This document shows positions 4,025 through 64,000 of a stretch of DNA of 64,000 nucleotides, piece by piece. Where the stretch lies: positions 408,991 through 472,990 of the forward strand of contig JBGAJA010000002.1 of the NCBI GenBank assembly GCA_044225175.1. The letters are read 5' to 3'. Position 1 is the first letter of the stretch. Each line of letters opens with the position of its first letter. This DNA comes from Candidatus Omnitrophota bacterium (GTDB taxonomy: Bacteria > Omnitrophota > Gorgyraeia > Zapsychrales > Fredricksoniimonadaceae). A program made the translations under genes and the position numbers. The notes under the pieces were generated by a model, which saw nothing but the letters and a program-made list of their open reading frames with translations, was not told the origin of the DNA and made no database searches.

Positions 4025-6547
4025 ATGCCCTATACTACAAACGATATTAAAGCAATTGAAGCCAAGTGGCAGAAATTCTGGGATGATCAGAAGACCTTTA
4101 AGGTTGAAGCGGATCCTTCTAAGAAGAAGTATTATGTCTTGGAAATGTTCCCATATCCCTCCGGCAAAATCCACATGGGCCATGTGCGCAATTACACAAT
4201 TGGCGATGTGATTGCCCGTTACAAAATGATGCAAGGTTTTAATGTACTACATCCCATTGGCTATGATGCCTTTGGACAACCCGCCGAAAACGCAGCAATC
4301 AAACACAAAACAAATCCCTCTGACTGGACATACAAATGCATTGAACAAATGCATGACGAATTAAAGAAGATGGGATTTTCTTATAACTGGGACCGTGAAT
4401 TCTCGACCTGTGATAGTGAATACTACAAATGGAATCAGTGGATTTTTATTAAGATGTATGAGAAGGGCTTAGCTTATAAGAAAGCTTCTTCCGTTAATTG
4501 GTGCCCTAGTTGTCAGACGACACTCGCCAATGAAGAAGTGATTGATGGGGCTTGTTGGCGGTGCAAAACAGTTGTGGATCAAAAAGATTTGGATCAATGG
4601 TATCTGAAGATCACTCAGTATGCTGAAAGCTTACTGGAAGATTTGAAACAGTTGGATCAATGGCCTTCACGTGTGCGTGCCATGCAAGAGAATTGGATTG
4701 GTAAAAGCTTTGGTGTGGAGATTTATTTCAAAATTGTAGGGGTGGGTTCCAAACCCACCCAACAAAAGGCAGGTTTAGAACCTGCCCCTACAGATGATGT
4801 AATCAAGGTTTTCACCACACGTCCGGATACTATCTTTGGTGCAACCTACGTCGTACTTGCCCCTGAACATCCCTTAGTTAAGAAATTGGTTAAAGGAACT
4901 CCTCAAGAAAAAGATGTTTTAGCATTTATCGAAAAGACGGCTAATAAAAGCAAGTCTATGCGTATGTCTGGTGGAGAACGTAAAGAAGGAATAGCTCTTG
5001 GGATTCATGCGATTAATCCAGTGAATGGAGAATCTATTCCAGTATTTATAGGGGACTATGTTCTCATGGATTATGGAACGGGTGCCATTATGGCAGTTCC
5101 AACACATGATCAGCGTGATTTCGAATTTGCCAACACGCATAAGCTTCCCATGCGCATTGTTATTCAGCATCCCAAAGAAGCCTTTACATTAGAAAGCATG
5201 TCTCAAGCCTATGAGGATCCAGGTGTTCTTGTGAATTCCAAGGAATTTGATGGCATTGGTAATGAAGAAGCTAAGAAGAAAATTGGCGAATGGATGACTC
5301 AAGAAAAAATGGGTAAGATCACTGTCCACTGGCGCTTGCGTGATTGGCTTATTTCTCGTCAGCGTTATTGGGGAACGCCCATTCCTATGATCTATTGTGA
5401 TAGTTGCGGGGTTGTACCTGTTCCTTATGAACAATTGCCCGTTGAATTGCCTAAGAATGTTGAGATTACAGGTCAGGGAGGCAGTCCATTAAATCGTGTG
5501 TCAGAATTCGTGAATGTGTCTTGTCCTAAATGCAAGAAAGCAGCCCGTCGTGAAACAGACACGATGGCCACATTCTTTGATTCTTCTTGGTATTTCTTAA
5601 GATTTTGCTCCGCACATAATGATAAAGAGGTGTTTAATAAGAATAATGCCAAGTATTGGATGACAGTTGATCAATACATTGGGGGGATTGAACATGCCAT
5701 TCTTCATTTGCTCTATTCTCGTTTCTTCACCAAGTTCTTTAAAGATTTAGGATTGATTGACTCAAGCGAACCTTTTAACCGTTTACTGACTCAAGGGATG
5801 GTGCTTAAAGATGGGGAGGTCATGTCTAAGTCTCGGGGCAATACGGTGGATCCAGATGAAGTCTTAAGCAAATATGGTGCAGATACACTTCGTTTGTTCA
5901 TTCTTTTTGCAGCTCCTCCAGAAGATCAACTGGAGTGGAATAGCGACGGGCTAGAAGGTTCTTGGAGGTTCTTGAATCGTGTGTATCAAATGGTTGAGAA
6001 ACGTTATGTGAAAGATGTAAAAGAAGAGGGTAAGGATCAGGTATTGGAACGAGCCCGTCATTCTGCCATCAAACAAATCACTCAATCGTTTGAAGAAGGA
6101 TATAAATTTAATACCGCTATCAGCCAGATGATGATTTTGGCAAATGCCATTGATAAATATAAGCCAGAATCCACGAGCACATTGAATCAAGCCATCGAAA
6201 CGCTCGTCTTATTATTAGGCCCTTTTGCGCCTCACATGTGCGAAGAGCTTTGGCAAATGATGTCCGCCAGAGGCGGATCCGCCTTTGGCGGAGGTCAAGA
6301 CTATTCTAGTATTAGCCGTGTTGCCTGGCCCAAATTCGATGAAGCAGCCCTTATCCAAGATGAAATCACATATGCCATTCAAATCAATGGTAAGGTCAGA
6401 AGCGAAGTCAAAGCCTCAGTCACAGCCACCCAAGAAGACTTGCAGAAGTTAGTCTTAGCCGATGCCAATGTCGCCCGCTATTTAGAGGGCGCCACCATCA
6501 AAAAATTCATTGTCGTCCCAAAGAAATTAGTTAGTATAGTCATTTAG
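4025..6547 (+). CDS. leuS: Leucyl-tRNA synthetase.
   Basis: HMGH motif (PSGKIHMGHVRNY), a KMSKS-like SKSRGN motif, 840 aa. The gene carries two in-frame palindromic insertions (4736-4791 and 6266-6299). Confidence 0.95.
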   Translation: MPYTTNDIKAIEAKWQKFWDDQKTFKVEADPSKKKYYVLEMFPYPSGKIHMGHVRNYTIGDVIARYKMMQGFNVLHPIGYDAFGQPAENAAIKHKTNPSDWTYKCIEQMHDELKKMGFSYNWDREFSTCDSEYYKWNQWIFIKMYEKGLAYKKASSVNWCPSCQTTLANEEVIDGACWRCKTVVDQKDLDQWYLKITQYAESLLEDLKQLDQWPSRVRAMQENWIGKSFGVEIYFKIVGVGSKPTQQKAGLEPAPTDDVIKVFTTRPDTIFGATYVVLAPEHPLVKKLVKGTPQEKDVLAFIEKTANKSKSMRMSGGERKEGIALGIHAINPVNGESIPVFIGDYVLMDYGTGAIMAVPTHDQRDFEFANTHKLPMRIVIQHPKEAFTLESMSQAYEDPGVLVNSKEFDGIGNEEAKKKIGEWMTQEKMGKITVHWRLRDWLISRQRYWGTPIPMIYCDSCGVVPVPYEQLPVELPKNVEITGQGGSPLNRVSEFVNVSCPKCKKAARRETDTMATFFDSSWYFLRFCSAHNDKEVFNKNNAKYWMTVDQYIGGIEHAILHLLYSRFFTKFFKDLGLIDSSEPFNRLLTQGMVLKDGEVMSKSRGNTVDPDEVLSKYGADTLRLFILFAAPPEDQLEWNSDGLEGSWRFLNRVYQMVEKRYVKDVKEEGKDQVLERARHSAIKQITQSFEEGYKFNTAISQMMILANAIDKYKPESTSTLNQAIETLVLLLGPFAPHMCEELWQMMSARGGSAFGGGQDYSSISRVAWPKFDEAALIQDEITYAIQINGKVRSEVKASVTATQEDLQKLVLADANVARYLEGATIKKFIVVPKKLVSIVI
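4736..4791. repeat. REP-like nested palindrome, family A, with outer stem GTAGGG...CCCTAC. It lies in frame inside leuS.
   Basis: The sequence is gtaggggtgggttccaaacccacccaacaaaaggcaggtttagaacctgcccctac. It contains two internal hairpins, GGTGGGTT/AACCCACC and GCAGGTTT/AACCTGC. Its translation within leuS is VGVGSKPTQQKAGLEPAPT. Confidence 0.85.
6266..6299. repeat. 22-bp perfect palindrome CCAGAGGCGGATCCGCCTTTGG plus flanks, family D. It lies in frame inside leuS.
   Basis: A nearly identical 34-nt stretch is found at 29555-29588 inside the second large secreted protein gene. Within leuS it translates as ARGGSAFGGGQ. Confidence 0.7.
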
Positions 6548-6619: not shown

Positions 6620-7171
6620 ATGTCTGAAAGAAAGCAATTACGGTTAAAGAATTATGAATATTCTGCGGCGGGGTATTATTTTGTGACGATTTGTGTTCAG
6701 GATCGTGTTCGTTTGTTTGGGGAAATAATAAATAATGAAATGATTTTAAACGAAACCGGAGAAATTCTAAAATTTACATGGTTTGATTTGGTAAATCATA
6801 ATGCAAATATTATATTGGATCATTTTGTGATCATGCCGAATCATATTCATGGAATTATACAAATCGTAGGGGCGGGTTCTGAACCCGCCTTTATGCCCAA
6901 TGGGGCAGGTTTGGAACCTGCCCCTACGACATTGGCAGAAATTGTTCGTCAATTTAAAACATTTTCATCAAAACGAATCAATAAATTATGCAATACGCCG
7001 GGCACAAAAATCTGGCAACGCAATTATTATGAACGTGTTATCAGAAATGAAAAAGAATTGAATAATATTCGACAATATATACAAGACAATCCTATAAATT
7101 GGGAATTTGATGAAAATTATTGTAGAGGTGGGTTCCAAACCCACCTTTTATGCGTAATAGGGCAGGTTTAG
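6620..7171 (+). mobile_element. REP-associated tyrosine transposase (RAYT, IS200/IS605-like TnpA_REP). It carries an internal REP insertion and a 3' end encoded by a REP.
   Basis: HuH motif (PNHIHGII) and the RAYT signature WQRNYYERVIRNE. A REP copy lies in frame between these two motifs, and another overlaps the last 16 codons. Confidence 0.85.
6866..6927. repeat. REP-like palindrome, family A, in frame inside the RAYT gene.
   Basis: The sequence is gtaggggcgggttctgaacccgcctttatgcccaatggggcaggtttggaacctgcccctac. It translates as VGAGSEPAFMPNGAGLEPAPT. Confidence 0.85.
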
Positions 7172-7184
7172 AACCTGCCCCTAC
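7122..7184. repeat. REP-like palindrome, family A, overlapping the RAYT 3' end and stop codon.
   Basis: The sequence is gtagaggtgggttccaaacccaccttttatgcgtaatagggcaggtttagaacctgcccctac. Confidence 0.85.
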
Positions 7185-7226
7185 GTAGATATTGTAAATA
7201 TTAATTGATTGGAATATACTGTCTTC

Positions 7227-8513
7227 ATGAAATTTTACGCTGACCTTCATATTCATTCCAAATACTCCCGTGCTACATCCAAAGATCTTGATTTAGAACA
7301 CCTTTACCTGTGGGCCCAATATAAGGGGATTCACGTCGTGGGGACAGGGGATTTTGTGCATCCGGCTTGGCTTAAAGAGATGGAAGAGAAGTTAGAGCCG
7401 GCTGAAGAAGGGTTATTTAAGCTTAAAGATCAATTTGCTAAAGAGATCGATAAAATTGTCCCAAAATCCTGCCAAATGCCCGTCCGATTTATGCTGACGG
7501 TTGAGATTTCTAATATTTATAAGAGGTTAGATAAGGTACGTAAGGTCCATAATTTGATTTGGGCGCCTTCGATTGAATCAGCTAAGAAGATTCAGGCCAA
7601 GCTTGGCAGCATTGGTAATATCAAATCCGACGGGCGACCTATTCTGGGCCTTGATTCTAAAGATCTGCTGGAAATTACACTCGAAGCAGATCCCAAAAAC
7701 ATCTTTGTTCCAGCCCATATCTGGACGCCTTGGTTTTCTGCACTTGGTTCAATGGGTGGCTTTGATCGTATGGAAGATTGCTTTGCAGATCTAACCAAGC
7801 ATATCTTTGCCGTTGAAACTGGTCTTTCATCAGATCCTTTGATGAATTGGCGGCTTAAGCAATTGGATTCATTTATTCTAGTCTCTAACTCTGATGCTCA
7901 TTCTCCTGGCAAATTAGGACGCGAGTGTAATGTATTTGATACAGAATTATCTTACCCTGCCATTTATAGTGCTTTATCCAATGAGAATGATAAGGGATTA
8001 GTGGGAACACTTGAGTTTTTTCCTGAAGAAGGAAAGTATCACTACGACGGACATCGTAATTGCCATGTGCGCTGGCATCCGAAACAAACAATTGAGAATC
8101 AGGGAATATGTACAGGTTGCGGGAAACCTGTCACTGTGGGCGTCATGGCTCGTGTCGAGCAATTAGCGGATAGACCCGAAGGACAAAAAGGCAAACGCCA
8201 TCGTCCTTATTGGAATTTAGTGACTTTACCGGAAGTCATTGCGGGAGCTAAAGGTGTTGGTTCCTCTAGTAAAGCCGTTCAAGCCGTGTATATGAATATG
8301 CTTAGCCAGATTGGCAATGAGTTCTATATCTTACTTGATGCTTCGATCGATGAAATTCGCTCTGTTGCAGGAGAGGTTATTGCAGAGGGAATTAGCCGCA
8401 TGCGAAAAGGTGATATTAAGATTGCAGCTGGATATGATGGTGAGTATGGAACGATTGAAATCTTCAAAGACGGCGAGCGCGATTTAATCGAAAAGCAATT
8501 GGCACTCTTCTAA
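7227..8513 (+). CDS. PHP-domain phosphoesterase/nuclease, EndoQ-like (TIGR00375-type). The ORF track starts at a TTG at 7209.
   Basis: N-terminal MKFYADLHIHSKYS PHP motif, additional His/Asp clusters, and a C-terminal CTGCGKP zinc-finger-like motif. The stop overlaps the start of the helicase gene (TAATG). Confidence 0.6.
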   Translation: MKFYADLHIHSKYSRATSKDLDLEHLYLWAQYKGIHVVGTGDFVHPAWLKEMEEKLEPAEEGLFKLKDQFAKEIDKIVPKSCQMPVRFMLTVEISNIYKRLDKVRKVHNLIWAPSIESAKKIQAKLGSIGNIKSDGRPILGLDSKDLLEITLEADPKNIFVPAHIWTPWFSALGSMGGFDRMEDCFADLTKHIFAVETGLSSDPLMNWRLKQLDSFILVSNSDAHSPGKLGRECNVFDTELSYPAIYSALSNENDKGLVGTLEFFPEEGKYHYDGHRNCHVRWHPKQTIENQGICTGCGKPVTVGVMARVEQLADRPEGQKGKRHRPYWNLVTLPEVIAGAKGVGSSSKAVQAVYMNMLSQIGNEFYILLDASIDEIRSVAGEVIAEGISRMRKGDIKIAAGYDGEYGTIEIFKDGERDLIEKQLALF

Positions 8514-10156
8514 TGAATTTCCCAAGACCAACAGATTTAAATGATGCACAGTGGAATGCCGTTTCCCACGATGATTCCCACCTTATGATCGTCGCAGGAC
8601 CAGGCACAGGAAAGACGCACACAATCACCTATCGTATTATTCGCACCATTCAAAAATTAAAACAAGATCAAAAGATCCTAGCGATCACATTTACCAATAA
8701 AGCAGCCAATCAGATGCGTGAGCGTTTGGAGGCAAAGATTCCCAATTATTGGAGACAGGTAAATGTAGGTACATTTCATCGTTTTGCTTTGAGTTTACTG
8801 CGGGAGTTTAGTCAGTACTTGCCTTTGCCAAAAGATTTTCAAATTGCTCTTCCTGAAGATATTCAGGAATGTCTAAGTGAGATTTTCCCTCAGAAAAGCC
8901 CCTTGCAGCGCAAAGAAACGCTGGAGGCAATATCTTGGATGAAATCCACTCAATTGGCTATTGATCCCTCCGAAGACTTCCAGAAATACCACCGCTTCTT
9001 AAGAGCCAAAGGTATGATTGATTTTGATGATATCTTACGAGAAGTTTTGATGCTTTTGGAGAATGAAGAGGTGTTACATAAGGTGCAAGGCAGATATCGT
9101 TACATCTTTGTGGACGAATATCAGGATGTGAATATTGTTCAGAATGCGTTGTTGAAATTGATTGTAGGGGTAACCCCCTGTGGTTGCCCTGAAGATAAGG
9201 GCAGGCACGGGGGCCTGCCCCTACTGACGGTTATCGGTGACCCTAATCAATCGATCTATGGCTTTCGTGGTTCTCAGGTGAAATTCTTTAATCGTTTCGA
9301 AGAAGATTTTCCAGGAGCTGCCAAGCTATACCTAAATGAGAATTATCGTTCAACAGCTAATCTTCTAACGGCCAGTTCTCAGGTCATCAATAAAGACCCT
9401 GGAGGCAAAGTTCCAGAGGCCATTGCCAAGATCTACGACGAGGGAAGACTTGTTATTCATGAAGCAGCAACTGACAGAGCAGAAGCTGAGTATGTGGCTC
9501 ATCAGATTGAACAATTGATTGGCGGAGTGAGCATGTTCTCTCAAGACTCCAATCGTGTTGAAACATATAGGCAGGCGCACCGTAGTTTTGGCGATATCGC
9601 TATTTTGTATCGCCTTAACACCCAAAAGAATGTATTGATTGAAGCGCTTGATCATTTAGGAATTCCTTATAGTGTGTCTTCTAAACCTAAGGTAGGGGCG
9701 GCTCTTGCAGACGCCCTTTTAGGGCAGGGGCAAGCCCTGCCCCTACAGACACAGGAACAGAAAGATGAACAGATATTAAATTGTTTCGAAGAATCCTTGG
9801 ACTACAAAGTAGAAAAGGTCTCTCTTTTAACATTACATGCTGCCAAAGGTTTGGAATTTCCTGTTGTTTTTATTGTCGGATGCGAAGCAAAGCTAATTCC
9901 CTTGGACATCAACGATCTTAAAGGCGACATCCAAGAAGAACGCCGGCTTTTTTATGTGGGGATGACACGAGCAAAAGAACATTTGTTTTTAACTAGAGCA
10001 GGACGGCGTCAAATCTTTGGAACCACGGTATTTAATCCACCCTCTATGTTTTTAGCTGACATTGAAGAAGACCTTAAAGCCTATGAGAATTCCAAGCTTC
10101 GCCGAAAATTATCTAAAAGCAAGGAAGCCGAGAAACAGCAGTTGAAATTGTTTTAG
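8513..10156 (+). CDS. Short UvrD/PcrA/Rep-family SF1 DNA helicase.
   Basis: Walker A (AGPGTGKTHT), motif II (FVDEYQD), motif III (VIGDPNQSIYGFRG), and a C-terminal segment LTLHAAKGLEFPVVF..FYVGMTRAK. It carries two in-frame REP insertions. Confidence 0.8.
   Translation: MNFPRPTDLNDAQWNAVSHDDSHLMIVAGPGTGKTHTITYRIIRTIQKLKQDQKILAITFTNKAANQMRERLEAKIPNYWRQVNVGTFHRFALSLLREFSQYLPLPKDFQIALPEDIQECLSEIFPQKSPLQRKETLEAISWMKSTQLAIDPSEDFQKYHRFLRAKGMIDFDDILREVLMLLENEEVLHKVQGRYRYIFVDEYQDVNIVQNALLKLIVGVTPCGCPEDKGRHGGLPLLTVIGDPNQSIYGFRGSQVKFFNRFEEDFPGAAKLYLNENYRSTANLLTASSQVINKDPGGKVPEAIAKIYDEGRLVIHEAATDRAEAEYVAHQIEQLIGGVSMFSQDSNRVETYRQAHRSFGDIAILYRLNTQKNVLIEALDHLGIPYSVSSKPKVGAALADALLGQGQALPLQTQEQKDEQILNCFEESLDYKVEKVSLLTLHAAKGLEFPVVFIVGCEAKLIPLDINDLKGDIQEERRLFYVGMTRAKEHLFLTRAGRRQIFGTTVFNPPSMFLADIEEDLKAYENSKLRRKLSKSKEAEKQQLKLF
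9164..9224. repeat. REP-like palindrome, family A variant, in frame inside the UvrD-like helicase.
   Basis: The sequence is gtaggggtaaccccctgtggttgccctgaagataagggcaggcacgggggcctgcccctac. It translates as VGVTPCGCPEDKGRHGGLPLL and lies immediately before motif III. Confidence 0.8.
9692..9746. repeat. REP-like palindrome, family A variant, in frame inside the UvrD-like helicase.
   Basis: The sequence is gtaggggcggctcttgcagacgcccttttagggcaggggcaagccctgcccctac. It translates as VGAALADALLGQGQALPLQ. Confidence 0.8.
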
Positions 10157-10168
10157 ATTTTTACTATA

Positions 10169-10257
10169 GTGTCATTGCGAAGCCGATGTTTTTGTCGGCT
10201 GAAGCAATCTTACATGACAGATTGCTTCGTCGCAAAAAGCGCTCCTCGCAATGACAC
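10169..10257. repeat. Complex nested palindrome, family B, with outer inverted repeat GTGTCATTGCGA...TCGCAATGACAC.
   Basis: Homologous copies are at 14454-14535 and 18603-18687. The GTG start proposed for comEA by the ORF track lies inside this element. Confidence 0.8.
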
Positions 10258-10318
10258 TGTACTTATAAGCCAATCCCCTGGCTTTTTTAATAACTTCCCA
10301 ACCATATATTATTTTCCC

Positions 10319-10654
10319 ATGATTCATTTAACACCTCAGGAAAAATCTGTAGTTATATGTCTTTGTGTGATTACTCTATGCGGATCACTCGTTCATGTGG
10401 GTTTGCAGAAAGAGATACGTGTGTTTGATTGGCTGCACACAGCCCAGAAGAAGTCATTTGCAACCACGATCAATATTAATAAAGCCTCAATGGAGGAGTT
10501 GTTAAGGGTTCCTGGCATTGGGCCCAAGACAGCAGAATTCATCTTAGATTATCGAACCTCAAAGGGAAAATTCACCAATCTGAATCCTTTGCAAGAGGCT
10601 AGAGGCATGAGCCCGGAGCGTTATGAACGTATTAGCAAATATCTTAAAATTTGA
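10319..10654 (+). CDS. comEA: ComEA-like helix-hairpin-helix DNA-binding protein. The start was trimmed to MIHLTPQEK after the repeat; the ORF track starts at a GTG at 10169.
   Basis: N-terminal TM/signal-like segment, and ASMEELLRVPGIGPKTAEFILDYR, a tandem HhH motif typical of ComEA. Confidence 0.65.
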   Translation: MIHLTPQEKSVVICLCVITLCGSLVHVGLQKEIRVFDWLHTAQKKSFATTININKASMEELLRVPGIGPKTAEFILDYRTSKGKFTNLNPLQEARGMSPERYERISKYLKI

Positions 10655-14445: not shown

Positions 14446-14453
14446 TAATTCAC

Positions 14454-14535
14454 GTGTCATTGCGAGCGAACGCAGTGAGTGTGGCAATCTCTCACGATCA
14501 AGATTGCTTCGTCGCTTCGCTCCTCGCAATGACAC
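14454..14535. repeat. Family B nested palindrome between hsp20 and clpB.
   Basis: The sequence is gtgtcattgcgagcgaacgcagtgagtgtggcaatctctcacgatcaagattgcttcgtcgcttcgctcctcgcaatgacac. Confidence 0.8.
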
Positions 14536-17938: not shown

Positions 17939-20900
17939 ATGAGAAAACAAACCACAATGACCTACATCAGCCGAAGGCTGATCAGCCTCTGGCTGACAGC
18001 TGCTTTTATAGTTGGCCCTTTGCCCAGGGCTCAGGCGCAAGATTTTACCTTACCTAAGCCTGGTGTCATGGTGCATCTAAGCCCTGAATTTACACCTGCT
18101 CATTTACAGGGCATGACCATTCATCCTGGTAATGCCTTACAATTCGATTTCTTAATTCACAAAGGCGATAAGAATTTACAAGCAGATCAGAAGAAAGAAG
18201 AATATAAGAAACTGATCAAGTATTTCCTCGCTTCTTTGACCATTCCTGATGAAGATCAATGGGTGAACCTTTCTCCCTATGAGAAGGATCGGATCATTAA
18301 GGATGATTTTGGTAAGACTGAGATGGGCCGAGATCTTTTAGCTCAGGATTATCTATTAAAACAAATTACCTCTAGCCTCATTTATCCCGAAGATAGTTTA
18401 GGACAGAAGTTCTGGGACAAGATCTATGAACGTGCCTGGAAGGAATATCATACGACCAATATCCCAGTGAATACGTTTAATAAGGTCTGGATTGTTCCGG
18501 ATGAAGCGATTGTGTATGAGAGTGGCAATAGCGCTTACATTCTCAAAAGTCATTTGAAGGTCATGCTAGAGGAAGATTATTTGTCATTAGAAAAGCATTC
18601 TGGTGTCATGGCGAACCACAAAGGGGTGAAGCAATTTTTTAAATCTGAAAAGATTGCCCCGTCGCCTTCGGCTCCTCGCAATGACACAAGTTCTCTTGGT
18701 TCGCAGGTAGTCCGCGAAATTGTACTTCCTGCTCTTGAGAAGGAAGTTAATGAAGGGGAGAATTTTTCTAATCTTCGTCAAATGTACAGCGGGATGGTTC
18801 TGGCGACATGGTACAAGAAAGCCCTTAAAGAATCTTTACTGGGAAAGTTTTATACTGATAAAGCCAAGGTCAAAGGAGTTAATCAGGATCCACAAAATAA
18901 TCAAGCCATTTACCAACAGTATCTCAAAGCTTTCAAGAAGGGCTGTTTTAATTATATCAAAGAAGATGTAGACAAATACACCAAGGAATCGGTTCCTAGA
19001 AAATATTTCTCCGGCGGTTTTCACCGCCCTATGTTCAGAAATGGATCCGAAGTAACCTTTATCCCTGCAGGGAAGTTGAATAGAACCTTAGCGATGGCAG
19101 CTATAGTTTCATCGCAAGAATCTCTAGAGCAGGCCACTGTTGCGTTTAATGCAGCAGGAGAGATAAGGAACAGTGCTCAATCGGCAGGCGATCAGGCGAT
19201 GATGGAAAATCCTCCGAAAGACTCCAATGCGGGAAGAGAAACATTAACCTTAGAAGCTTTGGAGAGAATTATGAGCTCCTATATCCAATCGAATGAAAAA
19301 TCGATCTATGGGTTTATTCAAACTTTGATACATAGCGTAGGAGGGGAAGCAAACATAACTGCGGATCCTAAAGGAATCGAACAAGGCGCTACAATTAGCT
19401 TTGCTTTTAGTTTTCGCAGAAATATTGAGTTATCAGGCAAAACATATAGTGCCCTTGAAGTGTCAACATTTATCCTAACCGAACTTGAAAGAAAGCTTAA
19501 TGAAGAATATGGCCGCAACTATAAAGTTGAAAGCCATATCATAGACAACCACGAGAGAGAATTGCATGATGACAGGAATTTTCAACTTGTGGTTGATATC
19601 GATAGAAGAACATTTGAAAAGGCGAAAATGCGCTATAAACAATTAATGTCCTTTTCGGATATTCTTAGTCGAATTGATGAAATACCCAGAACAGCACGCC
19701 CTAATATTTTATTTATGGTGCCTAGAGACGGCAACAGCCCAATTTATTTGATGCTTCAAAATACCGGACGATACATATTCTTTGACCATGTCACTGCCTT
19801 TAGTGTATTTAATGAAGAGCTTTATTATTCTTATTTGGATCCACAGGAACAAGGCAATGTAATTTTTGTTTGTTTGAATGCAAAAGGTGTTATTAGGCAA
19901 TTAAGACCAAATGAGGTCCCAAAGAGCCTCAGAGAAGAATTTGGTATACAAGAATCTGATTTGATGGATTTAAATGGTAATTATAAGGCCAGTTTTATTA
20001 TTGGCGGGTTCAATGATAATAATGTAATTGATTCCTTAACTCAGCTAAAAGGCGTCAAAATGGAAGATGTTGAGAATAAGATGAAAGAAACTTCACAAAC
20101 AGATGCAAAATCGATTAAGGATTTATTAAAAGATCAAAACACAAAGGTAACAAAGAGAGGATTTACACATCAAGAAATAGCTGAAGCGCTTTTTATAGCT
20201 ATGCAAAATATACCTGGAAAATATTTTAAAATTGCCAACTATGATTTCTTAATTGAAAAATCAACAAGTGATTCAAATAAAGATCCTGTATTCATAAACC
20301 CCAACAATTTTCTATCGCCAGACGCACGAAAAGTCCAATATACGCTAAGGAACATCTCATTGGATAGATCAATTACATTTTTTGCATCAACTGCTTACGA
20401 TATTGCGAATTTTGGTTTTTACGGGGACCTTGATCCATTAAATATGATCGAAGTATTAGGATTAAAACCTGTGGGAAGAGATACTGGCTCTTCTGAGGAT
20501 CAGCCAAATATTATCGATGGTAAAGCTCGAATCAATCCTGATGCAAGGATGCCAGATATTAAGAAAAAGATGCGAGCAAGTAACGAAGAGTTAGAGCGAT
20601 ATCATGCTGGGATTACAGCGGCATTAACGGCCGTAGTGAAGATTAATTTAGGCAAAGATGATATAGGAGAGACAAAAATTATTAATTTTGGATCAACATC
20701 AAGAGATACGCACATCGATAATTTTTCTAATGAAGGTTTAGATATTGATTATCTTATTCAATTTAGTACTGAAGATGAGTTGAAGCTGTTTAGACGAAAC
20801 CTGAAAACATTCGGTTTTTCTGCTGCAAAGGTTATTTTTCAAGATAAAGGTTTTGAATTTGCGCAGGGACAGAGAGGTTTGACTCCTGAAGGTCAATATT

Positions 20901-21661
20901 TACAGTCGTTTTATGTTAGAGAAAAGGGTCAAAAGATATGGATTCTATTGCATGTAAAATTTGCAGTAACGAAAAAAGATTTAATTTATATAGATTGGTT
21001 TGACCGGCAAATGACTCAAATTGAAAATTTAGGAGAAAGCCGTGAACAAATTGCCAGAGAAATTCGTAAGATGAAAAGCGTTATTCAAGATATGCGAAAG
21101 GGAAAAACTTATAAGCGTCGTGCTATTTCTATTGCCTTTGAGCAATTGGTTATTCAATCAGCGGGTGCTTCAGATTATGGGCGCACAATATTAGGAGTTG
21201 GAAGTTTTCAAAAGGCCATCGATCGAGTTTATGAGGCAGGTTATGATAAGCTAAATAAACGTGTAATCCCTCTTCAAGAAGTTCAAGATACTTTTCAAAT
21301 TTTTGATCCGGAGAAGAGAACTAATTATATAGCTACTTTTACAGTTCAGGAATGGAATGATTTAGTCAATTTAGTTATAAAAATTAAAGAAACACCAGAT
21401 TTTCTTAAGGAGATTATCGTAGGCAACCCAGGGAACTTGACAGATTCAAACAAAGCGATGACAGCAAAAGGTGGTGTTGACTTTAACTCTGCGAATTTGA
21501 ATTTACAAATCAAGCGTGATGGCCGTGGGGTGCCGCTGCCTTTAGCCCAGCAGGATATGGCCCAACTAAACGCCATTGAAGGTTTTGAAGTTAATATCTT
21601 GGAAATTAAACCTGCTGTTAATGTTTCCATCATTTCTGAATTAAAAACCATTGCAAAATAA
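17939..21661 (+). CDS. Large secreted modular protein, paralog 1 (1240 aa). It has a conserved N-terminal domain, a putative pol-beta-like nucleotidyltransferase motif in the middle region, and a conserved C-terminal domain.
   Basis: Signal peptide. The N-terminal roughly 330 aa and C-terminal roughly 90 aa are homologous to the 26711 and 63512 ORFs (KLIKYFLASLTIP..WVNLSPYEKDRI). A GS..(15)..DID motif lies near 20690-20749. Confidence 0.6.
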   Translation: MRKQTTMTYISRRLISLWLTAAFIVGPLPRAQAQDFTLPKPGVMVHLSPEFTPAHLQGMTIHPGNALQFDFLIHKGDKNLQADQKKEEYKKLIKYFLASLTIPDEDQWVNLSPYEKDRIIKDDFGKTEMGRDLLAQDYLLKQITSSLIYPEDSLGQKFWDKIYERAWKEYHTTNIPVNTFNKVWIVPDEAIVYESGNSAYILKSHLKVMLEEDYLSLEKHSGVMANHKGVKQFFKSEKIAPSPSAPRNDTSSLGSQVVREIVLPALEKEVNEGENFSNLRQMYSGMVLATWYKKALKESLLGKFYTDKAKVKGVNQDPQNNQAIYQQYLKAFKKGCFNYIKEDVDKYTKESVPRKYFSGGFHRPMFRNGSEVTFIPAGKLNRTLAMAAIVSSQESLEQATVAFNAAGEIRNSAQSAGDQAMMENPPKDSNAGRETLTLEALERIMSSYIQSNEKSIYGFIQTLIHSVGGEANITADPKGIEQGATISFAFSFRRNIELSGKTYSALEVSTFILTELERKLNEEYGRNYKVESHIIDNHERELHDDRNFQLVVDIDRRTFEKAKMRYKQLMSFSDILSRIDEIPRTARPNILFMVPRDGNSPIYLMLQNTGRYIFFDHVTAFSVFNEELYYSYLDPQEQGNVIFVCLNAKGVIRQLRPNEVPKSLREEFGIQESDLMDLNGNYKASFIIGGFNDNNVIDSLTQLKGVKMEDVENKMKETSQTDAKSIKDLLKDQNTKVTKRGFTHQEIAEALFIAMQNIPGKYFKIANYDFLIEKSTSDSNKDPVFINPNNFLSPDARKVQYTLRNISLDRSITFFASTAYDIANFGFYGDLDPLNMIEVLGLKPVGRDTGSSEDQPNIIDGKARINPDARMPDIKKKMRASNEELERYHAGITAALTAVVKINLGKDDIGETKIINFGSTSRDTHIDNFSNEGLDIDYLIQFSTEDELKLFRRNLKTFGFSAAKVIFQDKGFEFAQGQRGLTPEGQYLQSFYVREKGQKIWILLHVKFAVTKKDLIYIDWFDRQMTQIENLGESREQIAREIRKMKSVIQDMRKGKTYKRRAISIAFEQLVIQSAGASDYGRTILGVGSFQKAIDRVYEAGYDKLNKRVIPLQEVQDTFQIFDPEKRTNYIATFTVQEWNDLVNLVIKIKETPDFLKEIIVGNPGNLTDSNKAMTAKGGVDFNSANLNLQIKRDGRGVPLPLAQQDMAQLNAIEGFEVNILEIKPAVNVSIISELKTIAK
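18603..18687. repeat. Degenerate family B palindrome, in frame inside the paralog-1 gene.
   Basis: The sequence is gtgtcatggcgaacc...gaagattgccccgtcgccttcggctcctcgcaatgacac. It translates as SGVMANHKGVKQFFKSEKIAPSPSAPRNDTSS and lies exactly in a segment that is hypervariable between paralogs. Confidence 0.7.
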
Positions 21662-25114: not shown

Positions 25115-25173
25115 GTAGGGGCGGCCCCCTGTGGCCGCCCTTAATAAGGGCCGGCACAGGGGCCTGCCCCTAC
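25115..25173. repeat. REP-like palindrome, family A variant, in the dnaK-dnaJ intergenic region.
   Basis: The sequence is gtaggggcggccccctgtggccgcccttaataagggccggcacaggggcctgcccctac. Confidence 0.8.
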
Positions 25174-26710: not shown

Positions 26711-29700
26711 TTGTTTCAACGCGGGACATCATTAGGTGTACTTCTAGCTTTCTGTCTATCCTTGATTGCTCCTTATCAAACGGTTTGGGCTAAAGATGCG
26801 GGATTGATTTTGCCGAAACCCGGGGCAATGGTTAATTTAAGCCCTGCTTTTGAGCCTGTGATGATGAAGGGATTGAAGGTTGATCCGAAGAATCCGTTTC
26901 GGTTTGAATTCATTTTGGATCCAGGTGACGTAGGGGTGGGTTCTAAAACCATCCCTACGGATTTGAAAATCGAATCCACCAAATTAATCAAATATTTCCT
27001 CGCCTCTTTAACCATCCCCGAAAAAGACCTTTGGGTCAATTTATCTCCTTATGAAAAAGATCGAATGATTCCTTCCACCTTGGCCCAGACTGAGATGGGA
27101 CGTGATATGTTGTCCCAGGATTACATCCTCAAACAGCTAACAGCCTCTTTGATCTATCCTGAGAAAGAACTGGGAAAGGCGTTCTGGGATAAGGTCTATT
27201 CCAAAGCTCAAGCAATCTACGGAAGCACCCAGATTCCAGTGAACACCTTTAACAAGGTTTGGATTGTCGCAGACAAGGCAGATGTATTTGAGAGGGGAAA
27301 TGTAGCGTATGTGGTGGGGGCACATTTGAAGGTGATGCTAGAAGAAGACTATTTAGCGAATTCGAAAAATCAATTGCCAGCCAGGGGACATGTTCCGGAC
27401 AAAACCAACAGGAACGTGTCCCCCAGCACTTTGCCAAGCCATGTCGGGTTGGAAATGAAAGCAACCCAGGGACAATCACCAAACGTATTAGGAAACCAAA
27501 TCATCCGCGAAATTGTCCTTCCTGCTCTCGAACAAGAAATCAACACCGGCAAGCATTTCGCCCTCTTACGCCAGATGTTTTATTCCATGATCCTAGCCAG
27601 TTGGTACAAAATGGCGCTCAAGGATGCACTCATTTCTAAAATTTACGGCAATCAAAGTAAGGTCAAGGTGGGCATTAACCAGAAAGATATTAAAACCAAC
27701 GACGAAATCTTCAATCAATACCTGAAAGCTTACAAGAAGGGAGTGTTTAATTACATCAAGGAAGACATTTCCGCCATAGGCGGAACCGCCTCTGGCGGAG
27801 ATCACACTCGTCAACAACGTATCCCTAGGAAATATTTTTCAGGTGGAGAGCACGTTTGGCAATACCTAGATCATGCTCGGGTGGTCCATATGATCCCTAG
27901 AGGAACAAGTTTTGCAAATCAAGCCATGATTGCAGTGGTGGATATGACGCCTAAATCTAAAAATTCCGCCATGGCTTCAAAATTGACCCCTAATCAAATC
28001 ATCAATTTATTTAATCAAAAGTTTCCAGATAAGCATAAGCAGATTGCAGGGCTTCCTATTGCTGATGTTCAAAGCATAATAAATCCTACTACACAAAGAG
28101 CGTTTTATAGGGACTTTAAGAATAGAACAGAAAGAGATGGGATAGTGTTTAGCCGTTCCGCGACTAATCCTGTTTTTCTTAACAACTATATTAATCATAT
28201 TATGAAATTTGTTAAACCAGGTCAGAAAATTCTGTGTGTGGGAGAAGGCAGGGGCCATGTGGCTGCGGAATTAAAGAAAAGAGGGATAGATGTTTATGCC
28301 ATTGATCTGAGTGAGGAAAATACTGTTATTTCAAAAAGAAAAGGTGTTAACCAAATGGTTGGAGATGCCAGGGATTTACTTAAGCTGTACGGTCCAGAAA
28401 ATTTTGATATTGTGCTTTTTAGCGAATCCATAGGAGCAATGCCTATGGAGGACGTTTTAAAACAGGCCCATCTTGTGTTAAAACAAGGCGGAAATCTTCT
28501 GATCGGCGCTTATCCATCAACAGAAGAACGGGTGAAGATATCTCATCGGAGTAAATTCGTATATTATTCCACCCTTGAAATTAATGAAGCCCTCACTAAA
28601 GCTAAGTTTTCACATTTTCATCATGAACCCGTTTATGAAAATCCTGTCAATTTCTTTGATCTAGATGAAATGCCTGCAACATATCTTAATTTATTCGTAG
28701 CAACTAAACCACAAACAATGGATCTGCAATCCAGACAGGATCGTGCGATGGGAGTTCTTCAAGAAGATATTTCAAGGGAATTCTTATTGCTTCAAAGAAA
28801 AGTTCAGGAGTTACTTCAATATATTTTAATTGATGAAAATTGGGCAACATCACAACCAGTTACCTCAGAAATTTTTGAGGGGTTAGATTTAGATGCAAAC
28901 AGTCTTTTGAATGATTTAAGGACAAATGGTTATCTGAATGCAGCTAATGTCATGACAACAAAGCTTCAGGATCTTGAGTTTTCTTCCTTAATGCAATTTA
29001 CAAACCCCGTTTTTTCAGCCAAGAAATATGAGATTCACCAGAGAATTAAGAAGTTAAGACCGCTTATGGACTTTCGCGATATCACCCATCATGCTTTAAC
29101 AGGCCTTCTTTATTTTATGCTGATTTTAAGTACGGAAGACCTTCAAATCCTAGAAAAATTCAAAACAGACGAATTGGATGATATTGCGCATCTTTTATCG
29201 GGTTTGGGGGCTTCTTTAGGAAACCTTAATCAATATGAGATTCCAGGTGAATTAAGTACCAAGGATTTTATGTTTGCAACTCAATTGGGTAGGGTCGTGG
29301 GGGGGGTGCAACGAGCTTTGAAGGATCGAGTCTTTTTAGAAGAACATCAACAAGCAATCGCAGAAGTTGTCCAAAGGATTGAATTGATAAGCGAGCAAAC
29401 TAATCAAATCATTAAGCAAATCAGAGACCAGGCCATGAGTAATACCCCAGTTGATTCCACCAAACGTACAACACCAGGAGGTATTGACTTTGATCGCTCT
29501 AAAATGCAAATGAATGTGTCTAAAGAAGGCCAGGGAGTTCAAATGGATGCTCCAGCCAGAGGCAGGTCCGCCTTTGGCGGAGATCAAGCTATGATCGAAC
29601 GCATTCAGCGGGAGGGTTTTGATGGTTTAGAGTTTACTATTCGATCTCTTGAACCAGTGAAAGATTTGGAGTTGTTTTTGGGACTAAAAGAAAAGCCCCT

Positions 29701-29722
29701 AAGTCTTGCCGTTGCAAAATAA
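26711..29722 (+). CDS. Large secreted modular protein, paralog 2 (1003 aa), with a class I SAM-dependent methyltransferase module.
   Basis: Signal peptide. The N- and C-terminal domains are shared with paralog 1. A KILCVGEGRGHVAAE...IDLSE...GDARDL..FDIVLF Rossmann methyltransferase motif lies near 28226-28450. Confidence 0.6.
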   Translation: MFQRGTSLGVLLAFCLSLIAPYQTVWAKDAGLILPKPGAMVNLSPAFEPVMMKGLKVDPKNPFRFEFILDPGDVGVGSKTIPTDLKIESTKLIKYFLASLTIPEKDLWVNLSPYEKDRMIPSTLAQTEMGRDMLSQDYILKQLTASLIYPEKELGKAFWDKVYSKAQAIYGSTQIPVNTFNKVWIVADKADVFERGNVAYVVGAHLKVMLEEDYLANSKNQLPARGHVPDKTNRNVSPSTLPSHVGLEMKATQGQSPNVLGNQIIREIVLPALEQEINTGKHFALLRQMFYSMILASWYKMALKDALISKIYGNQSKVKVGINQKDIKTNDEIFNQYLKAYKKGVFNYIKEDISAIGGTASGGDHTRQQRIPRKYFSGGEHVWQYLDHARVVHMIPRGTSFANQAMIAVVDMTPKSKNSAMASKLTPNQIINLFNQKFPDKHKQIAGLPIADVQSIINPTTQRAFYRDFKNRTERDGIVFSRSATNPVFLNNYINHIMKFVKPGQKILCVGEGRGHVAAELKKRGIDVYAIDLSEENTVISKRKGVNQMVGDARDLLKLYGPENFDIVLFSESIGAMPMEDVLKQAHLVLKQGGNLLIGAYPSTEERVKISHRSKFVYYSTLEINEALTKAKFSHFHHEPVYENPVNFFDLDEMPATYLNLFVATKPQTMDLQSRQDRAMGVLQEDISREFLLLQRKVQELLQYILIDENWATSQPVTSEIFEGLDLDANSLLNDLRTNGYLNAANVMTTKLQDLEFSSLMQFTNPVFSAKKYEIHQRIKKLRPLMDFRDITHHALTGLLYFMLILSTEDLQILEKFKTDELDDIAHLLSGLGASLGNLNQYEIPGELSTKDFMFATQLGRVVGGVQRALKDRVFLEEHQQAIAEVVQRIELISEQTNQIIKQIRDQAMSNTPVDSTKRTTPGGIDFDRSKMQMNVSKEGQGVQMDAPARGRSAFGGDQAMIERIQREGFDGLEFTIRSLEPVKDLELFLGLKEKPLSLAVAK
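27384..27424. repeat. Hairpin GGGGACATGTTCC-(15)-GGAACGTGTCCCC, in frame at the hypervariable site of paralog 2.
   Basis: A 13-bp inverted repeat with one mismatch. It occupies the same variable segment where paralog 1 carries the family-B element. Confidence 0.55.
29555..29588. repeat. Family D palindrome copy (CCAGAGGCAGGTCCGCCTTTGG), in frame in paralog 2.
   Basis: About 32 of 34 nt identical to 6266-6299 in leuS. It translates as ARGRSAFGGDQ. Confidence 0.7.
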
Positions 29723-48193: not shown

Positions 48194-48925
48194 ATGAAGA
48201 CCCTAAAAGATACAGATGTGGTGATTCTAGCAGGAGGTTTGGGTAAAAGGCTTCAGTCTGTGACGGGCGGTTCACAGAAGATCCTTGCTCAGATTGATGG
48301 TAAACCTTTTATTAGCATCTTAATTGACTATCTTGCAGCCCAAGGTGCTTCGCGCTTTATCTTATGCACTGGCCATGATGCAAAGAATGTTGAAGAGACG
48401 TTAGCTAATGCCCACAGAGGACTCACTGTTTTATTTTCCAGAGAAGATGAACCTTTGGGTACGGGGGGAGCAATTAAAAAAGGGGCAGGCTTAGTTGAAA
48501 GCGACTTATTTCTGGCTATGAATGGAGATTGTTTTTGTGTGATTGATTATAATCGTATGATTCAAGAGCATCAAATGAACAAAGCCCAAGCCACTATTGC
48601 AATAACACAAATTGCAGATGCTCGAGAATATGGAACAATTGAAATTAATTCGAATAAAGAAATTATTACTTTTAAAGAAAAACAACCAATCTTGCAAAAA
48701 GCTTTGATCAACACTGGTACATATTGTTTGAATCGAAATATATTTAATGTAGGGGTGGGTTCTAAACCCACCCAAGGAAAATTTTCCATCGAATACGATT
48801 TTTTCCCTTATTTGGTTGGGAAAGGTTTTTTTGGGTTTGAAGTAGAAAATAAATTTATAGACATCGGTACGCCTGAGAGATATCAATGGGCGCAACAACA
48901 TTTAGCAGGATTAAATGGAAAATAA
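48194..48925 (+). CDS. hddC: Sugar-1-phosphate nucleotidyltransferase, D-glycero-alpha-D-manno-heptose 1-phosphate guanylyltransferase (HddC)-like.
   Basis: N-terminal VVILAGGLGKRL. The gene carries a half REP (48749-48773) in frame. Confidence 0.65.
   Translation: MKTLKDTDVVILAGGLGKRLQSVTGGSQKILAQIDGKPFISILIDYLAAQGASRFILCTGHDAKNVEETLANAHRGLTVLFSREDEPLGTGGAIKKGAGLVESDLFLAMNGDCFCVIDYNRMIQEHQMNKAQATIAITQIADAREYGTIEINSNKEIITFKEKQPILQKALINTGTYCLNRNIFNVGVGSKPTQGKFSIEYDFFPYLVGKGFFGFEVENKFIDIGTPERYQWAQQHLAGLNGK
48749..48773. repeat. Partial family-A REP (first hairpin only), in frame in the hddC-like gene.
   Basis: The sequence is gtaggggtgggttctaaacccaccc. It translates as VGVGSKPTQ, the same peptide as the leuS insertion. 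Confidence 0.7.
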
Positions 48926-62521: not shown

Positions 62522-63445
62522 ATGAATATTGTATTTTTTGGCAGTGATGATTTTGCAGGGGAGTGTTTGAAAGAGATCTTGAAGAGTTCTCATATGGTGG
62601 TGGGGTGTGTTACCCAGCCGGATGCTCGTCAGGGTAGGGGGATGAATTTGACTTTTTCTCCTATCAAAGAGCTTGCTCTTGAGCATGATTTGATTTGTAT
62701 TCAGCCGGAATCATTAAAAGGCCAGGCAGTCATTGATGCCTTAAAGTTTTTTAATGCTGATGTATTTGTGGTTGTGGCTTACGGCAAAATACTTTCCCAA
62801 GCTGTTTTAGATATCCCTAAGCTTTTATGTGTTAATGTGCATGGATCTTTGCTTCCTAAGTATCGCGGTGCAGCACCTATCAATTGGGCCATTATTAATG
62901 GGGACAAAGAAACAGGTGTGACGATCATGAAGATGAATGCTCAAATGGATGCGGGAGATATTATTGCCCAAGAAGTGATGCCTTTAGACGAAAGCACGAC
63001 AGCAGATGTATTGAGGCCAGAAATGGCAAAAGTAGGGGCCAAGCTTCTGGTTAAAACTTTAGGTAATATTGCGTCGGGAAATTACACGTGTGAGTCTCAA
63101 AACGAAGCCCATGTGACGATCGCCCACAAGTTAACCAAAGAAATGGGACGTATTGACTGGAATCAACCCGCAGCCACAATTGAACGCCAGATCCGAGGGC
63201 TTAAGCCATGGCCAGGGACATTTTGTTCATTTAAAAATAAGACCCTTAAAATTCTGCAGGCGAGTGTTGTTTCAGAGACTGGAGAACCAGGCATGATTCT
63301 TGGAACCAGCAAAGATGGCTTTACCATTGCCTGCGGTAAAGATGCTCTCTTAATTAAAGAAGTCCATTTGGAAGCCTCCAAACCTACCTCAGCCTATAGT
63401 TTCACACAAGGCCACCGTTTAGTTTTAGGTCAAAAATTACTCTAA
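62522..63445 (+). CDS. fmt: Methionyl-tRNA formyltransferase.
   Basis: IVFFGSDDFA N-terminus, the HGSLLPKYRGAAPI formyltransferase motif, and the C-terminal Fmt domain. Confidence 0.9.
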   Translation: MNIVFFGSDDFAGECLKEILKSSHMVVGCVTQPDARQGRGMNLTFSPIKELALEHDLICIQPESLKGQAVIDALKFFNADVFVVVAYGKILSQAVLDIPKLLCVNVHGSLLPKYRGAAPINWAIINGDKETGVTIMKMNAQMDAGDIIAQEVMPLDESTTADVLRPEMAKVGAKLLVKTLGNIASGNYTCESQNEAHVTIAHKLTKEMGRIDWNQPAATIERQIRGLKPWPGTFCSFKNKTLKILQASVVSETGEPGMILGTSKDGFTIACGKDALLIKEVHLEASKPTSAYSFTQGHRLVLGQKLL

Positions 63446-63511: not shown

Positions 63512-64000
63512 CCTATGTTTAAACGTCTTATTGCCTCTATTGTCTGTCTTTGCTTTATTTCTTCAACTGTTCACGTTTCCTATGCCCAGACAGGTTTTAA
63601 ACCTGTCTCTACGTTAAATTTGCCAGAACCAGGCACTATGGTAGGCCCCTCAGTACCTTTTACACCTTTGTCCTTAAAAGGCCTAGTAATTAACCCTAAA
63701 AAGCCTTTGGAATTTCAATTCATTGTGGATACGGGTACAAATCATACCCCTCCAGATATTCAATCCGAATCCACCAAATTAATCAAATACTTCCTAGCCG
63801 GCCTAACGATTCCTGAAGGAGACCTGTGGGTGAATTTAAGCCCCTATGAGAAGGAACGAATCACCCCCCAAGCCTTAGGCCAGACCGAGTTAGGGCGAGA
63901 TTTGCTGGCGCAAGACTATATCTTAAAGCAGTTAACTGCCTCTTTGATCTATCCTGAGCGTGACCTAGGTAAGGAGTTCTGGAGCCGGGTGTATCAACAG
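63512..64000 (+). CDS. Large secreted modular protein, paralog 3 (N-terminal fragment only; it continues past the window).
   Basis: Signal peptide and the conserved N-terminal domain, including KLIKYFLAGLTIPEGDLWVNLSPYEKERI...LLAQDYILKQLTASLIYPE. Confidence 0.6.

Follow-up and report, generated by a model that had tools for sequence, protein, structure and literature searches.

Repetitive extragenic palindromes (REPs) of the GTAG superfamily were defined, and linked to REP-associated tyrosine transposases (RAYTs), by Di Nocera, De Gregorio & Rocco (2013, BMC Genomics 14:522; PMC3733652). According to that survey, dimers or groups make up more than half of the intragenic REPs and encode 20-30 aa, at times with two in one open reading frame (ORF), and their hosts include UvrD/Rep helicases, UvrA/B, RecBCD, DnaE2 and tRNA synthetases. 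The top intragenic count was found in a PVC bacterium (abbreviated O. terrae), and the inserts were argued to lie probably in flexible linkers or loops. Here we analyse a 64,000-nt stretch of DNA from a Candidatus Omnitrophota bacterium (the window), in which the gene of a UvrD-like helicase harbours two segments that are inverted dimers of GTAG-type REPs with a REPIN-like organisation. We consider it likely, judging from the sequence comparisons below, that these dimers are tolerated and translated passengers, RAYT-type mobile palindromes filtered by frame and site, and that the helicase has remained intact.

The elements of the window share with those of Di Nocera et al. the GTAG-footed GC-rich dimers, the occurrence of two per ORF, the helicase and tRNA synthetase hosts and the link to a RAYT. 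They differ in belonging to Omnitrophota, a phylum not covered in that survey, and in their host, a helicase without domain 2B that is linked to a homolog of Endonuclease Q (EndoQ); moreover, their structural sites are mapped here, and one of the two helicase inserts took the place of native residues. A second point of reference is subclass 2.4 of TnpA_REP, equivalent to RAYT group 4 (Quentin et al. 2018, BMC Genomics 19:475; PMC6006769), reported there as abundant among Cyanobacteria and Bacteroidetes. Its REPs are of the 'double foot' type, GT[AG]G...C[TC]AC, with three G-C pairs at the bottom of the stem, and the transposase gene itself holds an in-frame REP that separates its HUH motif from its Tyr motif. 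The RAYT and REPs of the window match this subclass in the double feet, the three-G-C stem bottom and the internal REP, while the NCBIfam score of the transposase is below the cut-off.

REPINs, composed of two inverted REPs and a short spacer, are thought to be the unit mobilised by RAYTs (Bertels & Rainey 2011, PLoS Genet 7:e1002132; PMC3116915). The dimers described here likewise fold into a single long hairpin. However, REPINs are described as extragenic and as existing in hundreds of near-identical copies in Pseudomonas and enterobacteria, whereas the copies here are few in 64 kb, have diverse stems and are mostly intragenic. The Rickettsia palindromic elements (RPE; Ogata et al. 2002 Genome Res 12:808; Claverie & Ogata 2003 TIBS 28:75; both cited in PMC3733652) are the classical analogue, since they too are mobile palindromes that sit in frame in many housekeeping genes, with function apparently kept, and end up as protein loops. 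However, they comprise the CGTC-type RPE-4 and RPE-6 (PMC3733652) and the longer RPE-1, are limited to Rickettsia and have no sequence relation to GTAG-footed elements. The resemblance is one of behaviour only, and the elements of the window do not belong to the RPE family. To our knowledge, no dedicated transposase is known for RPE. Both the intragenic GTAG REPs, including those of UvrD/Rep helicases and tRNA synthetases, and the RAYT with an internal REP are already known (PMC3733652, PMC6006769), while no paper connecting Omnitrophota with either REPs or RAYTs turned up in our literature search. What is new is the Omnitrophota host, the exact structural mapping, the frame rule, the re-use of sites and the replacement of a native loop.

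Coordinates are positions of the window, except where a relative is named. Relatives are cited by labels (L001, L081, L162 and L163 for DNA; P0002, P0003, P0004, P0008, P0012, P0039 and others for protein alignments). The window has a GC content of about 39% and an ORF share of about 95%, and its closest relatives among public genomes are metagenome-assembled genomes of Candidatus Omnitrophota, part of them automatically labelled 'Planctomycetales'. The host gene and its two inserts are as follows.

8513..10156, plus strand: UvrD-like helicase ORF of superfamily 1A (SF1A), without domain 2B, hosting both REP dimers; 547 aa, uninterrupted.
9164..9224, plus strand: REP dimer 1 in the helicase, subfamily B; 61 nt, exact match, phase 0, read as VGVTPCGCPEDKGRHGGLPL.
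9692..9746, plus strand: REP dimer 2 in the helicase, subfamily C; 55 nt, exact match, phase 0, read as VGAALADALLGQGQALPL.

These two copies had already been marked as REPs in the initial annotation, and both prove to be exact matches to the pattern GTAGGGG-N(20-50)-CCCCTAC within a single open ORF. Five exact matches are present in the window, all on the plus strand, against 0.00 expected from 100 shuffles; together with about four degenerate copies or part-copies they form a family for which the chance expectation in 64 kb is 0. Each dimer is an inverted REP pair (GTAGGGG, hairpin, spacer, hairpin, CCCCTAC). The 5' arm consists of GTAG followed by a GC-rich stem-loop of 8-9 bp with three G-C pairs at its bottom, and after a spacer of 7-14 nt the 3' arm mirrors it and ends with CTAC. 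The copies begin with GTAG(G/A)GG and finish with CC(C/T)CTAC, as GTAG-type REPs do, and the single-arm stems of -9 to -19 kcal/mol agree with the GC-rich stem-loop of this type. The inner stems vary among copies and yet stay paired (CGGG/CCCG, TAAC/GTTG, CGGC/GCCG and TGCCC/GGGTA). Whole dimers can be folded as one long RNA hairpin (-32 to -49 kcal/mol), and their single-stranded DNA (ssDNA) folds have z scores of -3.5 to -5.6 relative to shuffles, so that inverted REPs, short spacer and single long hairpin are all found, as in REPINs. The location departs from the typical extragenic one, six of the nine copies lying entirely within ORFs; this does not bar membership in the REP family, because intragenic exceptions have been published. 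A search of the entire window against Rfam gave no match.

Could the two segments have arisen through mis-assembly, or be native loops of low complexity? The sequence comes from a metagenome-assembled genome, in which repeats can be joined wrongly, but unique in-frame helicase sequence stands on both flanks of each element, the helicase is located on a 793-kb contig, and REPs at the second helicase site recur in the independent assemblies L001 and L081. As for native loops, the loop at the first site is short in 112 of 119 homologs, and the segments are members of a repeat family for which chance would give 0 matches. We find this explanation scarcely credible.

The host ORF matches Pfam UvrD-helicase (6.5e-63) and UvrD_C (5.3e-40), and its best PDB matches (about 1e-64) are UvrD1 of M. 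tuberculosis, E. coli UvrD and PcrA, the alignments consisting of two blocks and passing over 2B. Its SF1 motifs I, Ia, II, III, IV, V and VI read AGPGTGKT, TFTNKAA, VDEYQD, GDPNQSIYGFRG, ENYRS, TLHAAKGLEF and VGMTRAK. All seven have their counterparts in the UvrD/PcrA motifs and do not vary across the family alignment, in line with the initial annotation, which had stated that the SF1 motifs are retained. In the PDB alignments, motif II occupies residues 200-205 (UvrD D220-E221) and motif III residues G242-G253, the counterpart of G247-G258 in E. coli UvrD. Residue 388 pairs with UvrD 376 and the next block pairs residue ~431 with UvrD ~548; the whole helicase family hence lacks domain 2B, and instead of the four-subdomain architecture with 2B it has a linker of 16 aa. 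The NCBIfam equivalog scores (PcrA 348, UvrD 283 and Rep 286 bits; cut-offs 911, 1144 and 951) are far below their thresholds, and by this sequence measure the protein is UvrD-like and not an ortholog of PcrA, UvrD or Rep.

An AlphaFold2 (AF2) model built from a 119-sequence alignment reached a mean predicted local distance difference test score (pLDDT) of 88.5 and a predicted template modelling score of 0.85. It replaced an earlier model from a 23-sequence alignment, which had a mean pLDDT of 60.8 and an unusable C-terminal half. Foldseek compares the model with UvrD/PcrA/Rep at template modelling scores of 0.72-0.77. Confidence is low solely at the inserts and a few other loops, and the conserved core is mostly above pLDDT 85 and up to 98. 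Compared with UvrD/PcrA/Rep (PDB 2is1, 1pjr, 1uaa and 9dci), all SF1 motifs and the 1A/1B/2A fold are common to both, whereas the present helicase has no 2B, scores below the NCBIfam equivalog cut-offs and is paired with an EndoQ homolog.

The first insert lies between LKLI and LTVIGDPNQSIYGFRG, that is, immediately before motif III, where the initial annotation had also placed it. It covers residues ~219-238 and is flanked by helix 208-218 and strand 237-242, a stretch in which UvrD has AGDTGK. The annotation had credited it with 20 additional residues. However, of 119 homologs 112 have a segment K215..T239 of 11 aa, compared with 25 aa in the window helicase, which brings the net gain down to +14 aa. 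Neither 61 nt nor 55 nt, the lengths of the two elements, is a multiple of three; at this first site, the net gain of +14 aa means that about 19 nt of native loop (xxEGxL), or about six residues, are missing. The insert, whose arms are hairpins of 8 bp each, folds with -22 kcal/mol as ssDNA (z -5.55) and -47 kcal/mol as RNA; at the DNA level it shares 83-86% identity with two other copies, the one at 25115 and the one in the leucyl-tRNA synthetase (LeuRS) gene of L001. In the AF2 model, DSSP assigns coil to residues 219-236, with the exception of one helical turn of three residues, and the pLDDT of block 221-230 is 64.

In RecA-like domains, the functional residues are positioned at the C-terminal ends of the strands. 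The loop of the first site is placed by fold comparison at the N-terminal end of the motif-III strand of the 1A sheet, and hence is expected to point away from where ATP and DNA are bound. The same loop has taken up additional residues in other lineages, from 4 to 23 aa overall in the 119-sequence alignment: P0012 gains +11 aa with a REP-like peptide VGG...SPL (VGGLGQPMYGRTDGSPL), and P0035, P0061 and P0092 gain +18 to +23 aa from a different repeat. The insertion in P0008 was tried as a REP and rejected, being a plain 4-aa indel. The loop of M. tuberculosis UvrD1 at this position is naturally 7 aa longer.

The second insert falls in a short linker, which takes the position of domain 2B in UvrD/PcrA. 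Its assignment to the 2B/2A junction had been imprecise, as the family has no 2B. With 34 aa here, this linker exceeds the 16 aa found in 71 of 119 homologs; the proposed gain of 18 residues thus stands relative to the commonest length, while relative to the closest relatives free of the REP, with K(I/V)KKEDLxxL in this place, it is only about +10 aa. A few family members have insertions of 60-140 residues in the same linker. The fold energies of the insert are -18.2 kcal/mol as ssDNA (z -3.53) and -35 kcal/mol as RNA, and its pLDDT in the AF2 model is 69-72. When the helicase is aligned to the UvrD/PcrA structures, as had been proposed, the inserts fall in a loop and a linker, and the model depicts them as lower-confidence peripheral segments between core elements. 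Taken with the secondary structure, the pLDDT and the logic of the fold, this points to surface exposure of both.

In contrast to the first insert, a REP at the second site is seen in three genomes. L081 has one at the same place of the linker, 81% identical to that of the window and with compensatory changes in the stem, and L001 has a different REP there. All three are in frame, in helicase genes that are 70-73% identical in nucleotides (70% between the window and L081) and saturated at synonymous sites. A REP at this site therefore appears compatible with long-term maintenance of the helicase gene. On a neighbour-joining tree, the window helicase, P0002 and P0004 have the REP, while P0003, the sister of P0002, and P0039 are without it. 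A simple gain/loss history was considered and rejected as not parsimonious on this tree. The REP-bearing alleles continue downstream with EQIL(N/D)(C/S)FEE and the REP-free ones with LLQ(Q/H)FEE (query residues 385-430), and the patchy distribution suggests either recombination of alleles or recurrent insertion at one spot. The predicted peptides reading through the helicase inserts include LIVGVTPCGCPEDK, HGGLPLLTVIGDPNQSIYGFR and VGAALADALLGQGQALPLQTQEQK. Most homologs have no insert at either position, and both sites are permissive, because other elements have inserted independently in the same loop and linker in other lineages.

The other copies of the family in the window are the following.

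4736..4791, plus strand: REP dimer of subfamily A, in frame in leucyl-tRNA synthetase; exact match, read as VGVGSKPTQQKAGLEPAPT.
6866..6927, plus strand: REP dimer of subfamily A, lying in frame within the RAYT gene, with the HUH motif on one side and the Tyr motif on the other; exact match, read as VGAGSEPAFMPNGAGLEPAPT.
7122..7184, plus strand: REP dimer of subfamily A across the 3' end of the RAYT ORF; phase 1, provides the stop codon.
25115..25173, plus strand: intergenic REP dimer of subfamily B, the same as helicase insert 1; exact match, with stops in phase 0.
26930..26958, plus strand: single 'double-foot' REP, GTAGGGG..CCCTAC, 29 nt, in frame in ORF 26711-29722.
48749..48775, plus strand: single REP arm of subfamily A, in frame in ORF 48194-48925.
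63589-63615: single REP unit beyond ORF 62522-63445.

Pairwise identity divides the family into subfamily A (4736, 6866 and 7122), subfamily B (9164, 25115 and the LeuRS copy of L001) and subfamily C (9692 and its L081 counterpart). Copies of one subfamily are 75-89% identical. All six fully intragenic copies of the window, as well as the four copies in relatives, are read in phase 0 with the codons GTA GGG. Phase 2 of a REP always opens with a TAG stop, and the only phase-1 copy ends the RAYT ORF.

These regularities can be accommodated by a filter acting on small, non-autonomous mobile palindromes, which would be moved as single-stranded hairpins by RAYT / TnpA_REP. As about 95% of the window is ORF, a moving REP would usually land in a gene. 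The surviving insertions would be those in the GTA-GGG phase, without an internal stop and with a length change divisible by three; only this phase would do, because the adjacent one starts with a TAG stop. They would also be confined to places tolerating extra residues, which in the helicase would be the loop at the N-terminal end of the motif-III strand and the linker at the natural 2B insertion point. Both inserts would be transcribed and translated together with the helicase and form two floppy surface peptides, and the enzyme most probably still works with its EndoQ partner.

That partner is encoded directly upstream.

7209..8513, plus strand: Endonuclease Q homolog, conserved operon partner; P. 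furiosus EndoQ (PDB) 9.8e-52, TIGR00375 1.7e-52.

Its stop overlaps the helicase start (TAATG at 8511-8515), and the order EndoQ-helicase is conserved in every relative examined, including L001, L162 and the contigs of P0003 and P0012. Among these relatives, the 2B-less helicase is always preceded by an EndoQ homolog (7209-10156 in the window), which suggests that the pair may be a repair module.

The helicase gene itself bears no sign of decay at the sequence level. All 69 invariant alignment columns are found in the query, by construction, as the query is among the 119 sequences. At columns conserved to at least 90% in the other 118 sequences, the query has the consensus at 170 of 173, and the median of the others is also 170. 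Relative to the closest full-length ortholog, the proportion of nonsynonymous differences (pN) is 0.135 and that of synonymous differences (pS) 0.77, a saturated value; pN and pS are given for window pairs instead of dN/dS because of this saturation. For the helicases of L001 and L081, dN/dS is ~0.03. As pN is far below pS, the comparison indicates strong purifying selection. The reading of the initial annotation, two peptide loops of foreign origin carried by an SF1 helicase that is intact otherwise, is well supported by a dispersed REP family, a RAYT nearby, the lack of inserts in most homologs and the undecayed gene.

Several observations nevertheless weigh against intact function and passive passengers. 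Among the homologs compared, insert 1 is confined to this genome, and the sign of long-term maintenance given above concerns the second site. It displaced about six native residues, four residues upstream of motif III, and may have a functional cost. The close relative L163, 84% identical to the window helicase over the C-terminal half, has the native loop at the first site and, in that same loop, an in-frame TAA at 728-730 where other orthologs have CAA, so that the gene is split into two called ORFs. The TAA may reflect a real pseudogene or a sequencing error, and it implies that this helicase gene can suffer inactivating changes. Moreover, the helicase REPs belong to subfamilies B and C, with inner stems unlike those of subfamily A, which is tied to the window RAYT, and few copies are seen, as the analysis covers 64 kb.

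Some of these points would fit a helicase that is a young pseudogene or a crippled enzyme, in which the REP before motif III, perhaps through hairpins within the mRNA (-47 and -35 kcal/mol for the two inserts), has cut function while stops are yet to accumulate. We regard this as unlikely, though conceivable. The 547-codon ORF is open across two GC-rich inserts, the consensus is retained at the conserved columns as often as in the median family member, and the stop/start overlap with EndoQ is preserved. The loop of the first site takes +4 to +23 aa in other lineages and +7 aa in M. tuberculosis UvrD1, and the REP of the second site has lasted through saturating synonymous divergence under strong purifying selection. 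The inserts would then be neutral, and the helicase would probably retain its activity.

The enzyme that may have moved the palindromes is encoded about 1.3 kb upstream of the helicase, between LeuRS and the EndoQ-like gene.

6620..7171, plus strand: REP-associated tyrosine transposase (RAYT / TnpA_REP), subclass-2.4-like; Pfam Y1_Tnp 2e-07.

Its Pfam Y1_Tnp score is above the cut-off. The NCBIfam model NF047646 (REP_Tyr_transpos) gives 1.2e-18 and 67.3 bits, under the curated cut-off of 80 bits, because the internal REP splits the match in two. Homologs of the ORF are named 'RayT' by JGI. H75 and H77 of the HUH motif and Y153 are invariant in alignment A3, and the counterpart of Y153 in E. 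coli TnpA_REP (4er8) is the Tyr of the YIYINP segment. The likeness to subclass 2.4 was judged from the feet, the stem bottom and the internal REP. A subfamily-A REP lies inside ORF 6620-7171 and another at its 3' end, which associates this transposase with the repeat family as in other RAYT systems. Most of 59 metagenomic RAYT homologs have a palindrome with GTAG/CTAC feet in the same loop (GTAGGGGC...GCCCCTAC) with variable stems, and the peptide AGLEPAPT, derived from the internal REP, is invariant across 17 homologs from several phyla. We initially considered the internal REP and its peptide as a new finding and rejected this, as both are published for TnpA_REP subclass 2.4 (PMC6006769). 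L001 and L162 have no RAYT at that position, LeuRS being followed directly by the EndoQ-like gene. The window RAYT is the probable mobilising enzyme of the REP family, and mobilisation of the helicase copies would be due to it or to a paralog elsewhere in the genome.

The LeuRS gene offers a parallel to the helicase linker. An in-frame REP is found at the identical codon (after KI, before D) in the window (4736-4791) and in L001 (2822-2880). The former is of subfamily A and the latter of subfamily B, and the two are 61% identical, compared with 76% for the surrounding gene. Such coincidences raise the question of whether intragenic REPs are functional, either as hairpins (binding sites for RAYT, gyrase or IHF, translational pausing, mRNA stability) or through interaction peptides. 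Compensatory changes keep the stems between orthologous copies, in LeuRS as well as in the helicase linker several genomes have a REP at one and the same codon position, sometimes of another subfamily, and many intragenic REPs of repair genes were noted by Di Nocera et al. (PMC3733652); if the REPs were functional, the over-representation reported for them in genes of replication and repair would be functional as well. However, stem conservation would be expected anyway in transposase substrates, and in a window that is 95% coding, insertion into genes is the default outcome. The REPs are patchy among close relatives (P0003 and P0039 have no REP at the second site, and all but the window none at the first), the encoded peptides are not conserved across subfamilies, and unrelated repeat families occupy the same spots. 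A function of this kind is in our view very improbable.

A related possibility is that certain codon positions of housekeeping genes are re-usable docking sites, at which RAYT would exchange cassettes or insert in a targeted manner between GTAG/CTAC feet, in place of random insertion followed by selection. This would account for the LeuRS codon with subfamily A here and subfamily B in L001, for the linker with three REP variants in three genomes, and for the 61-nt REP that exactly replaces 19 nt of the native loop at the first site. If so, hairpins in the DNA of repair genes could be maintained for a reason. We hold such docking to be improbable, and cassette exchange in particular is rated unlikely because the native loops of orthologs lack the feet: pre-existing GTAG...CTAC feet were found in none of the native site 1 loops in the DNA of 13 orthologs, the nearest sequence being GTTGG in L081.

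With the dimers taken as frame- and site-filtered passengers, the locus provides a structurally mapped case in which a selfish palindromic repeat has been incorporated into a protein of an essential type. With it, the range of intragenic REPs and of a subclass-2.4-like RAYT system grows to include Omnitrophota, a phylum known almost solely from metagenomes. GC-rich inserts of this kind can mislead gene calling, homology scores and alignment-based phylogeny. Established knowledge of REP biology and helicase mechanism is unchanged.

Other repeats are also present in the window and its relatives. A second palindrome family of about 30 nt, TCCGCCAGAGGCGGA.CCGCCTnTGGCGGA, is found at 6261-6296, 17967-18003, 27769-27801 and 29549-29582; it is read in frame as SARGGSAFGG-like peptides, and the copy in LeuRS gives 10 aa absent from L001. 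A third family consists of palindromic elements of about 85-95 nt bounded by GTGTCATTGCGA...TCGCAATGACAC (10168-10262, 14453-14535 and 18651-18687): one copy begins 12 nt past the stop of the helicase gene, another stands between genes, and ORF 17939-21661 contains a half copy. Both families have members that sit in frame in window genes. The window has no cation-efflux gene between the helicase and comEA; an element of the third family is located there (10157-10330), where L001 (7588-8481) and L162 (3620-4525) have a cation-efflux gene before comEA. The helicase orthologs P0012, P0024, P0099, P0034, P0044, P0113, P0035, P0061 and P0092 have in-frame peptides of other repeat families in several loops, for instance GHVPN..FGTCP, CHSRESGN and GLD...SSPA. 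Repeat-encoded inserts thus appear to be common in Omnitrophota.

Nearly all ORFs from 3.5 kb on are on the plus strand, and the GC skew is positive in every 2-kb bin with a steadily rising cumulative skew; the window looks like one long leading-strand stretch. A 250-nt segment with 61-73% identity is found at 18166-18415, 26938-27187 and 63733-63982, in the very large ORFs 17939-21661 and 26711-29722 and in a third region near the window end. These segments look like paralogous domains, and two of them have a REP unit (26930 and 63589) a short way upstream.

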